Positions 4,854-5,480 of a DNA stretch of 5,538 bases are shown piece after piece. Under the pieces are notes generated by a model. The model was not told where the DNA came from and did no database searches. It saw only the letters and a program-made list of their open reading frames with translations. Position 1 is the stretch's first letter, and each line of letters starts with the position of its first letter. This stretch comes from a virus (Duplodnaviria; Heunggongvirae; Uroviricota; Caudoviricetes), in the IMG/VR virus record IMGVR_UViG_2663763220_000007; one strand, given 5' to 3'. The position numbers and the translations under genes were made by a program.

Positions 4854-4920
4854 GTTCTTTTTTTGTGGTGAAAGATGAGGCAAAATTATCGCGTAACATG
4901 CTAACAATGGAGTTTGTTTT

Positions 4921-5403
4921 GTGATAAAGCCATTTTTAATGACGGTTGCAATATTAACCTCTTGCTGTGCTCAGGCGAAAATACTAACAAATGAGGAGAT
5001 TGTTTCACGATTTATTAGTAACGTTAAAACATCTGCAGATAATGACGTTGACTTGGATACAGATGGATTCAGACAACTGAGGATATCGTGCCCATCCCCT
5101 TCTGCCAGCGGTGCGATTATATTGAGAAAAGCTTCTTATGAATTCGGCAAAAGTATAGGTGTATTTGATTTTGCAAACAATGCATCACCAGCGACGATGA
5201 CATTTTTGATCCCAATATATAAAGATGATGATTTTGATTCAGATACTGTTGGTTTTACATTTGCGTTCAAGATGCCAAGAGGCCAGTTTTTTGTAGATGT
5301 AAAAGAAAACGGGAATATCAGAGCTGGAGTTAATGTTAATGGCGAGTCGGGAGTGACCTACGAAAATTGCAAATTGAATATGAAAGATATTAATGATGAT
5401 TAA
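4921..5403 (+). CDS. hypothetical exported protein / putative lipoprotein, low-GC cargo gene of unknown function
   Basis: 160-aa ORF from GTG at 4921 (alternative ATG at 4939), with GGAG at 4909-4912 8 nt upstream. N-terminus MIKPFLMTVAILTSCCAQAK has a hydrophobic core, a lipobox-like LTSC (Cys15) and an AQA motif that could be a signal peptidase I site. G+C is about 36% in a hand count of 4921-5040 (43/120), versus well above 50% in the tail genes. Followed by an intrinsic terminator. Confidence 0.6.
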   Translation: MIKPFLMTVAILTSCCAQAKILTNEEIVSRFISNVKTSADNDVDLDTDGFRQLRISCPSPSASGAIILRKASYEFGKSIGVFDFANNASPATMTFLIPIYKDDDFDSDTVGFTFAFKMPRGQFFVDVKENGNIRAGVNVNGESGVTYENCKLNMKDINDD

Positions 5404-5410
5404 TATATAA

Positions 5411-5435
5411 GCCGCCAGAAATTGGCGGTTTTTTT
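5411..5435 (+). terminator. rho-independent (intrinsic) terminator
   Basis: Stem CCGCCA (5412-5417) pairs with TGGCGG (5423-5428) around loop GAAAT, followed by T7 at 5429-5435; begins 8 nt after the cargo gene stop codon. Confidence 0.75.
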
Positions 5436-5480
5436 ATAGTGGAGACAGTATGGACTTACCTTCTTTACCTTCTCTTTCTT

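Follow-up and report, generated by a model that had tools for sequence, protein, structure and literature searches.

The genes for Llp (T5) and Cor (phi80/N15/HK022), which act at the envelope and block entry, adjoin related tail or receptor-binding genes. A close described counterpart of the locus reported here is the HK97 gp15 moron, as summarised in PMC3594210 (Juhala et al. 2000; Cumby et al. 2012), in which an envelope protein encoded beside the tape measure gene blocks genome injection, with exclusion depending on the tail region of the incoming phage. A moron, in the Juhala/Hendrix definition quoted in the same source, is extra DNA of deviant composition, placed between genes that adjoin in related phages, with its own promoter and terminator, expressed from the repressed prophage. 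The Ltp lipoprotein of S. thermophilus TP-J34 targets the tape measure protein (Bebeacua 2013, as cited in PMC3952083), morons in late operons act as anti-phage defences (as described in PMC10884400), and antiviral systems occupy accessory hot spots in P2 and P4 (Rousset et al. 2022, as cited in PMC10884400). Here, a 5,538-nucleotide (nt) stretch of caudoviricete DNA (IMG/VR record IMGVR_UViG_2663763220_000007; the whole stretch is called the window) was analysed, in which positions 4854–5449, between the tail tape measure gene and a Mu N-like DNA-circulation gene, are best explained as a moron-type accessory cassette, consisting of a leader, a Shine-Dalgarno sequence, a single gene (the cargo gene) and an intrinsic terminator.

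Like HK97 gp15, the cassette is an extra gene with deviant G+C content and its own predicted terminator, adjoins the tape measure gene, is missing in close relatives, and has a product that is predicted to go to the cell envelope. In contrast, gp15 is a small relative of YebO in the inner membrane, its gene precedes the tape measure gene, and a promoter and expression from the prophage are documented for it, whereas the cassette product is an unrelated exported protein of 160 amino acids (aa), predicted to be a beta-barrel lipoprotein and encoded downstream of the tape measure gene, for which a consensus promoter was not found. The product shares with Ltp, Llp and Cor, all three of which act at the envelope to block entry, that it is phage-encoded, exported and a predicted lipoprotein, but no sequence or fold relationship to them was detected, and lipid anchoring varies within its family. 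As in the P2/P4 hot spots and the Pseudomonas phage morons (such as Tab), a fixed slot amid late genes holds unrelated AT-rich cassettes or is empty; unlike in the P2/P4 hot spots, the slot lies in a Mu-type tail module and is occupied by single small envelope proteins, not by cytoplasmic multi-gene defence systems. Tail-operon morons are an already known kind, and what is added here is a defined slot, empty in most phages, which in enterobacterial prophages (E. coli, Shigella, Salmonella, Yersinia) holds at least six unrelated small envelope-targeted proteins.

The cassette and its junction

The upstream neighbour of the slot is the tail tape measure gene (2904–4853, plus strand), an open reading frame (ORF) of 649 aa with a Pfam PhageMin_Tail match at E 1.4e-44; as far as position 4843, its nucleotide sequence is 97% identical to L47 of the Stx2e phage phiP27. 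The distance from the tape measure stop to the DNA-circulation ATG was 15 nt both in phiP27 and in a prophage of E. coli ATCC 43886 and 24 nt in SfIV, in agreement with an earlier model-made reading of the window (the first-pass annotation) that the two genes normally follow each other directly, and 596 nt in the window. Among ~50 complete E. coli genomes with the junction (megablast level), 11 carried an extra 580 bp and ~35 had the direct junction. Homology between carriers and non-carriers was lost ~9 nt before the tape measure stop and regained ~70 nt into the N gene. Since no convincing direct or inverted repeats were found around the cassette, its exchange is best explained by homologous recombination in the flanks. 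A junction in E. coli FDAARGOS_1077 with a different upstream neighbour, considered as another cargo, was rejected as a deletion in a defective prophage.

Composition was compared against 3519 windows of 587 nt within the tail genes (58–4853), with a masked run of N excluded. The 596-nt spacer had a G+C content of 36.7%, versus a tail-gene mean of 52.3% (standard deviation 2.8, minimum 47.2%), and the cargo ORF, one of 36.9%. The abrupt fall after the tape measure stop that had been described by eye was thus recovered by windowed computation as a drop of ~15 points, and the earlier hand count of ~36% for 4921–5040 came to 35.0%; the accompanying statement that the tail genes are clearly above 50% was slightly overstated (49–52%), with the contrast to the cassette unaffected. 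The G+C content at codon positions 1/2/3 was 42/38/31% in the cargo ORF, compared with ~59/43/55% in the tape measure gene, a shift at all three positions, and the third-position value of 31% compares with 52–60% in the sheath, tube and tape measure genes.

The cassette opens with an AT-rich leader of 67 nt (4854–4920, plus strand, 34.3% G+C) containing a Shine-Dalgarno GGAG at 4909–4912, eight nt upstream of the GTG start of the cargo gene (4921–5403, plus strand, 160 codons). The first-pass annotation had proposed one stand-alone gene with a good Shine-Dalgarno sequence, and this was upheld by the ORF and its translation, by the ribosome-binding site, by a RefSeq annotation of the same ORF in E. 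coli (WP_000594909.1, ‘hypothetical protein’), and by a chance probability of ~1e-5 for 160 stop-free codons at cassette composition. The strong intrinsic terminator proposed after the gene likewise held as a prediction (5409–5436, plus strand; 9–10 bp GC-rich stem, 3–5 nt loop, 7-T run), the hairpin at 5409–5431 folding at −14 kcal/mol with a z of −3.3. An Rfam scan gave sub-threshold matches only, caused by the terminator. A hairpin plus T-run was present 3′ of the cargo gene in every lineage, with its position kept and its sequence not. The locus therefore shows extra DNA between otherwise adjacent genes (596 nt versus 15–24 nt), a deviant composition (36.7% versus a tail-gene minimum of 47.2%, and likewise in all lineages), and a predicted terminator of its own.

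Downstream of the terminator, an IS1 end had been placed ~45 nt away, and IS1 indeed begins at 5481. Those 45 nt hold a feature overlooked in the first-pass annotation, the start of the Mu N-like DNA-circulation gene (5450–5480, plus strand, 31 nt; ATG at 5450, Shine-Dalgarno at 5441–5444), which is interrupted by IS1 in Shigella only. The intact gene in E. coli FDAARGOS_944 encodes a 463-aa ‘DNA circularization protein’, and the intact homologue matches Pfam DNA_circ_N at E 3e-36. The proximity of this IS1 end to the terminator, in a remnant riddled with insertion sequences, would suit an IS1 that delivered or bounded the cassette, a possibility raised in the first-pass annotation, or a decayed, non-functional ORF. 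We regard delivery or mobilisation by IS1, or a dead ORF, as extremely improbable: in 11 E. coli genomes and many IMG/VR prophages, an identical cassette with unchanged borders stands without IS1, no direct or inverted repeats flank it, IS1 interrupts the next gene and does not border the cassette, and the ORF is intact, conserved, and has a ratio of nonsynonymous to synonymous substitution rates (dN/dS) below 1 in most pairwise comparisons. The suggestion of IS1 delivering or bounding the cassette was therefore dropped.

For a census of the junction, loci were gathered with three N-protein queries and the spacer from the tape measure stop to the N start was measured, yielding 142 distinct junction sequences. 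The junction was empty (spacer ≤40 nt) in 85 of the 142 and held a member of phrog_5586, the family of the window’s cargo, in 25. A 164–170-aa protein with a Sec signal peptide (phrog_8976, function unknown) was found in 12, a 176-aa protein with an N-terminal membrane anchor (phrog_5485, function unknown) in 12–14, and a 148-aa membrane-anchored OB-fold protein (Pfam tRNA_anti-like, PF12869), encoded on the opposite strand, in 3; the last matched phrog_8545, ‘superinfection exclusion Sie-like’, at E 1.5e-49. Single junctions held a 90-aa polytopic membrane protein with three hydrophobic segments and an unrelated 151-aa lipoprotein with no family (lipobox LAGC followed by Asp). The phrog_8976, phrog_5485, PF12869 and 90-aa types were read from the L113, L115, L141 and L206 junction spacers. 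The 151-aa lipoprotein (locus L061, 1872–2432, IMGVR_UViG_2189573020_000003; MKKALIILSCLFCLAG followed by CD; 35.8% G+C) had no Pfam, PHROG, PADLOC or phage-database match, the Asp at +2 suggests inner-membrane retention, and its terminator closely resembles that of the window (ACCGCCAGAATCGGCGG plus a T-run).

All cargo spacers were 31–38% G+C, and a hairpin plus T-run ended every plus-strand cargo. The six cargo types in the slot are all single, small, envelope-targeted, AT-rich proteins; four of the types are PHROG families, three of those without known function, and none of the six had a PADLOC match. The tape measure/DNA-circulation junction is therefore a recurrent cargo hot spot for cell-envelope genes. 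One further junction (1/142) carried a terminator hairpin alone in a 73-nt spacer (L238, 2426–2498; hairpin AAACCCGCATTGCGGGTTT plus a T-rich tail, without a gene), which could be a remnant of cargo loss or could point to a terminator that is part of the slot and not of the cargo.

The cargo family and its predicted product

The cargo protein matched phrog_5586 (‘unknown function’) at E 9.7e-89, with residues 1–160 aligned to profile positions 1–161 of 161, and had no match in Pfam (up to E 10), NCBIfam or PADLOC. A search of 5.8 billion proteins returned 9 family matches, and 18 were obtained when 1.84 billion cluster representatives were searched exhaustively with a profile. No source named any family member, and no literature was found on the protein accession or on phage 720R4; the family is already catalogued as phrog_5586, without an assigned function, structure or literature. 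Five subfamilies were distinguished: the window type (S. flexneri, S. sonnei, E. coli), a Yersinia type at 74% identity, a 720R4 type at 50% identity (E. coli, Salmonella), and two more at ~40% and ~35% identity. The cargo gene lay between the tape measure and N genes in 42 of 42 IMG/VR loci with these subfamilies, as well as in phage 720R4 and a Yersinia contig, and had a G+C content of 34–40% against 45–57% in the flanks in every such locus. At least five diverged tail-module lineages carry the family at this junction, with tape measure proteins 51–83% and N proteins 52–68% identical to those of the window.

On these comparisons, the cassette is old, optional and position-fixed, and not a recent arrival. 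The first-pass annotation had called the locus foreign, moron-like cargo, and had named a conserved syntenic place in the tail module, with similar composition, as the observation that would speak against this. An optional, compositionally deviant extra gene was confirmed, and a simple recent insertion was not, with homologues of 35–74% identity at the same junction; the contrary observation was made in part, with synteny in at least five diverged lineages at similarly low G+C, and 85 of the 142 junctions are empty. A low G+C content kept over such divergence does not date the insertion. The retention of 34–40% G+C among homologues that are only 35–50% identical marks it as a maintained property rather than a sign of recent arrival, and cautions against dating insertions by composition.

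The same synteny in at least five diverged lineages, together with a cargo divergence that roughly parallels that of the flanking tail genes, would fit a conserved part of the Mu-type tail, structural or needed for assembly, whose absence from some annotated phages is only apparent. This explanation is very improbable. A signal peptide or lipobox in every member takes the protein out of the cytoplasm, where tails are assembled; neither of the isolated phages phiP27 and SfIV has the gene, and 60% of junctions lack it; unrelated cargo takes its place at other junctions; and the family also occurs outside tail modules. Because the protein is exported and is absent from functional phages (phiP27, SfIV), it is almost certainly not a virion component.

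Three distant members (24–28% identity; L004 740–1270, L005 2919–3413, L006 1–452) were found on plasmid-like phage contigs, adjoining IncFII-type RepA, ParA, HigBA-like or MazEF toxin-antitoxin pairs and a CI-type repressor, again with a terminator 3′ of the gene. Given these members outside tail modules, the function of the family is not tied to tail assembly. Among 185,579 species-representative genomes, the cargo gene was present in two only, S. flexneri and E. coli, at the same prophage junction.

The ORF was full length and free of stops in 26 of 27 IMG/VR loci examined from the two best-sampled subfamilies. Pairwise dN/dS within subfamilies was mostly 0.2–0.9, with a few pairs of tiny counts above 1, versus ~0.1 for N and the tape measure gene in these phages, and synonymous divergence in the same phage pairs was 0.02–0.05 for the cassette versus 0.09–0.16 for the flanks; the counts behind both measures are small (2–17 changes). 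These values fit a functional gene on which selection is weaker or in part diversifying, and suggest that the cassette moved between related phages more recently than the flanks diverged. Taken together, we consider it very likely that the locus is an optional, functional cassette for an exported protein within a cargo hot spot. The sole disrupted copy of the 27 (L016/L057, IMGVR_UViG_2874968258_000001, ~2055–3000) carries an IS1 after about codon 34. The Yersinia enterocolitica allele (L007, 7950–8010) looks frameshifted in its signal-peptide region, where the frame of ATGAAAAAACCTATCTACTTGTGTTTATGA soon meets a stop codon and MMLISCC, the start given in the annotation, is in another frame; a pseudogene or a sequencing error is possible.

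The product of the window allele begins with a signal peptide with a lipobox (4921–4965, plus strand), in which MIKPFLMTVAILTS precedes Cys15 (4963–4965), the predicted lipidated first residue. This start, MIKPFLMTVAILTS followed by CC, matches the PROSITE-type lipoprotein pattern, with Lys3, a hydrophobic core at residues 4–12 and the lipobox LTSC, and thereby has each feature expected of a signal peptidase (SPase) II substrate (positive residue, core, lipobox [LVI][ASTVI][GAS]C, Cys at 15–35). Under the usual lipoprotein sorting rule, a +2 residue other than Asp directs a lipoprotein to the outer membrane. Because residue +2 of the window allele is Cys and not Asp, the product is predicted to be a lipoprotein that is probably bound to the outer membrane and faces the periplasm. 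The Yersinia allele also has a lipobox (LISC), and all remaining subfamilies have ordinary Sec (SPase I-type) signal peptides, with products predicted to be soluble in the periplasm, so that predicted export is conserved in the family and lipid anchoring is not.

Cys57 and Cys150 are present in every full-length family member, down to ~25% identity, and the motifs SASG (61–64), GQFFV (121–125) and AGVN.NG (135–141) are kept in the tail-slot subfamilies. An AlphaFold2 model of the mature protein, built from a 14-sequence alignment, reached a predicted local distance difference test score (pLDDT) of 85 and a predicted template-modelling score (pTM) of 0.81; a 5-sequence alignment gave a pLDDT of 49 only. 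The predicted fold is an N-terminal helix followed by an 8-stranded beta-barrel, with Cys57 following strand 1 and Cys150 within strand 8, and a disulfide between the two that closes the barrel is plausible in the model. Foldseek returned generic small barrels only (E ≥0.04 versus PDB, ≥0.02 versus viral models), and a sequence profile search of the PDB gave chance matches only (E ≥0.14). Descent shared with the calycin-like 8-stranded up-and-down beta-barrels (lipocalin/avidin/MoaF-like) was considered as a possibility for this fold.

An exported small barrel with lipoprotein and soluble variants recalls the MliC/PliC pair, and the pentapeptide SASGA is common to the cargo protein and E. coli MliC. 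These features, the occurrence of carriers among gut pathogens and commensals (Shigella, E. coli, Salmonella, Yersinia), and an ORF that stays intact in an eroded Shigella remnant would fit a lysogenic-conversion factor that helps the bacterium outside phage conflict. The barrel, periplasmic or anchored in the outer membrane, would bind or neutralise a molecule from the host or the environment, acting for example as an inhibitor of lysozyme or proteases or, like Bor of lambda, as a lipoprotein for serum resistance. Identity with the MliC/PliC lysozyme inhibitors was rejected, since profile comparison with hhalign (using a MliC/PliC alignment validated on PDB 2f09, 3f6z and 4mir) gave a probability of 0.1% and there was no Pfam MliC match up to E 10. 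Compared with PliC/MliC, the cargo protein is ~60 residues longer and has an N-terminal helix, and its SASG motif sits in the beta1-beta2 loop right after the first Cys, which is not equivalent to MliC’s motif loop, and is lost in distant members; MliC/PliC inhibitors are recognised by SxSGAxY and YxxxTKG in corresponding loops. The family is also confined to phage contexts (in 2 of the 185,579 species-representative genomes, both at the same prophage junction), and strict linkage to one tail junction is unexpected for a general host-fitness gene, although lom and bor of lambda have fixed positions too. Overall, a conversion factor seems rather unlikely.

Expression and proposed function

A consensus sigma-70 promoter scan of 4600–5538 gave 0 sites, versus 3.0 expected in shuffles, consistent with the earlier remark that only weak sigma70 candidates lie upstream, and the same scan upstream of the cargo gene in the 720R4 allele also found none. 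The cassette may have a weak or non-consensus promoter. Because the isolated carrier phage vB_EcoM-720R4 encodes a Q antiterminator, Q-antiterminated late transcription should read through both the cargo gene and its terminator. A conserved terminator placed before essential baseplate genes is most readily understood as insulation against transcription that is not antiterminated, that is, transcription in the lysogen, and an insulating terminator in the lysogen is the classical moron argument as presented in PMC3594210.

The orientation of the gene along the Q-dependent late operon, with no promoter of its own detected, its fixed place within the tail operon in five lineages, and a spacer that shrinks to ~20 nt in one lineage would also suit a late lytic-cycle helper, which would mask receptors or entry sites to spare progeny (as T5 Llp) or modulate envelope breakdown at lysis. 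The strong conserved terminator before essential baseplate genes is hard to explain under antiterminated transcription alone; one alternative cargo is encoded in the opposite direction and requires a promoter of its own; and the distant homologues reside in plasmid-maintenance regions, not in late operons. We judge a helper of this kind improbable, although its mechanism overlaps with exclusion and differs from it only in timing.

The function that we favour, tentatively and at less than even probability, is envelope-level superinfection exclusion at the step of genome delivery, keeping related phages out. Within the expressing cell, the protein would act in the periplasm or on the inner side of the outer membrane. 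There it would bind a component of the incoming tail that reaches the periplasm (tape measure, N protein or tail tip) or, alternatively, an envelope component used by those tail parts, and the binding would block genome delivery by related phages. In the lysogen, the terminator would shield the downstream baseplate genes from cassette transcription, and late Q-modified transcription would read through it. Exclusion is suggested because all slot occupants are envelope proteins and one is annotated Sie-like, because the slot is flanked by genes for two proteins that enter the periplasm with the DNA, and because HK97 gp15, Ltp and late-operon morons with anti-phage activity provide precedents. 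The suggested spread of the cassette between phages, on small counts, also points towards exclusion, and a dN/dS above that of N and the tape measure gene would suit an interaction under conflict.

Several observations weigh against superinfection exclusion. No homology was found to known exclusion, defence or immunity proteins (Cor, Sie-like PHROGs, Pfam, NCBIfam, PADLOC), phrog_5586 being the only match; the ‘Sie-like’ label on the alternative cargo is a database annotation, and the protein bearing it is unrelated to phrog_5586; and lipid anchoring varies within the family. With no promoter found, and only ~20 nt between the tape measure stop and the cargo gene in one lineage, the cargo gene may be expressed only late in lytic growth. 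The raised dN/dS could equally reflect relaxed constraint. The more specific proposal, that the junction is a dedicated hot spot of single-gene envelope superinfection-exclusion cassettes and that phrog_5586, its commonest occupant, is a new class of periplasmic beta-barrel exclusion protein, lipid-anchored or soluble by allele, which blocks tape measure/N genome passage across the periplasm, is a possibility that we put forward as unlikely in its full form. If the occupants are entry blockers, the slot would offer a compact, testable set of new exclusion proteins against genome delivery by contractile tails, which for the Mu type is a poorly understood step, and would be relevant to how susceptible Shigella and pathogenic E. 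coli are to phages.

The surrounding prophage remnant

The window was 99.97% identical to the Shigella flexneri SFBU1023 chromosome (compared over positions 1921–5538) and is a 5.4-kb remnant of a decayed prophage tail module in Shigella flexneri, bordered by IS600 and IS1. The left border is an IS600 (IS3-like) end at 1–57, which truncates the tail-terminator gene at its 5′ side at the left end of the window; homology of the prophage to E. coli begins at 56, and positions 1–57 are found again downstream in the S. flexneri chromosome, within sequence annotated as IS600 transposase in E. coli. Besides the truncated tail-terminator gene, Pfam matches identified a DUF2635 gene, the tail sheath gene, the tube gene (2128–2484) and the assembly chaperone gene (2484–2819) in the tail module. 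At the right border lie the terminal 58 nt of an IS1 copy (5481–5538, minus strand; thousands of multi-copy matches), and the full IS1 in the S. flexneri chromosome is a 99.7% match to sequence annotated as IS1 family transposase. Past IS1, the Shigella chromosome (L054, 3561–5235) runs directly into another IS600 and not into the remaining prophage; since the IS1 that cuts the DNA-circulation gene leads straight into IS600, the baseplate genes are deleted in the Shigella flexneri remnant.

The parent phage combined an HK97-type head, a Mu-type contractile tail and lambdoid regulation, with a tail module of the phiP27/SfIV/ST64B type. Relatives of the window prophage have HK97-type portal, protease and capsid genes, and phage vB_EcoM-720R4 encodes cI, O, the Q antiterminator and S/R/Rz lysis genes, so that the earlier designation as a Mu-like phage was corrected to cover the tail module only.

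A perfect tandem 9-nt repeat (TTACCTTCT ×2) at 5456–5473, in the start of the DNA-circulation gene, encodes LPS-LPS near the N terminus; its interpretation as an IS1 target duplication was ruled out, as IS1-free relatives have the repeat too. In the closest E. coli prophage copy (FDAARGOS_944, L001 1103–2293, 99.9% identity), an ISEc60 lies within the sheath gene; the decay of this tail module is thus under way in several hosts independently, with the cargo ORF still intact. The window sheath gene contains a masked run of 104 N at 1197–1300, and a second low-G+C dip (26–28%, 1101–1400) was discarded as an artefact of this run, which also inflates the sheath ORF to 520 codons, compared with 498 in relatives.

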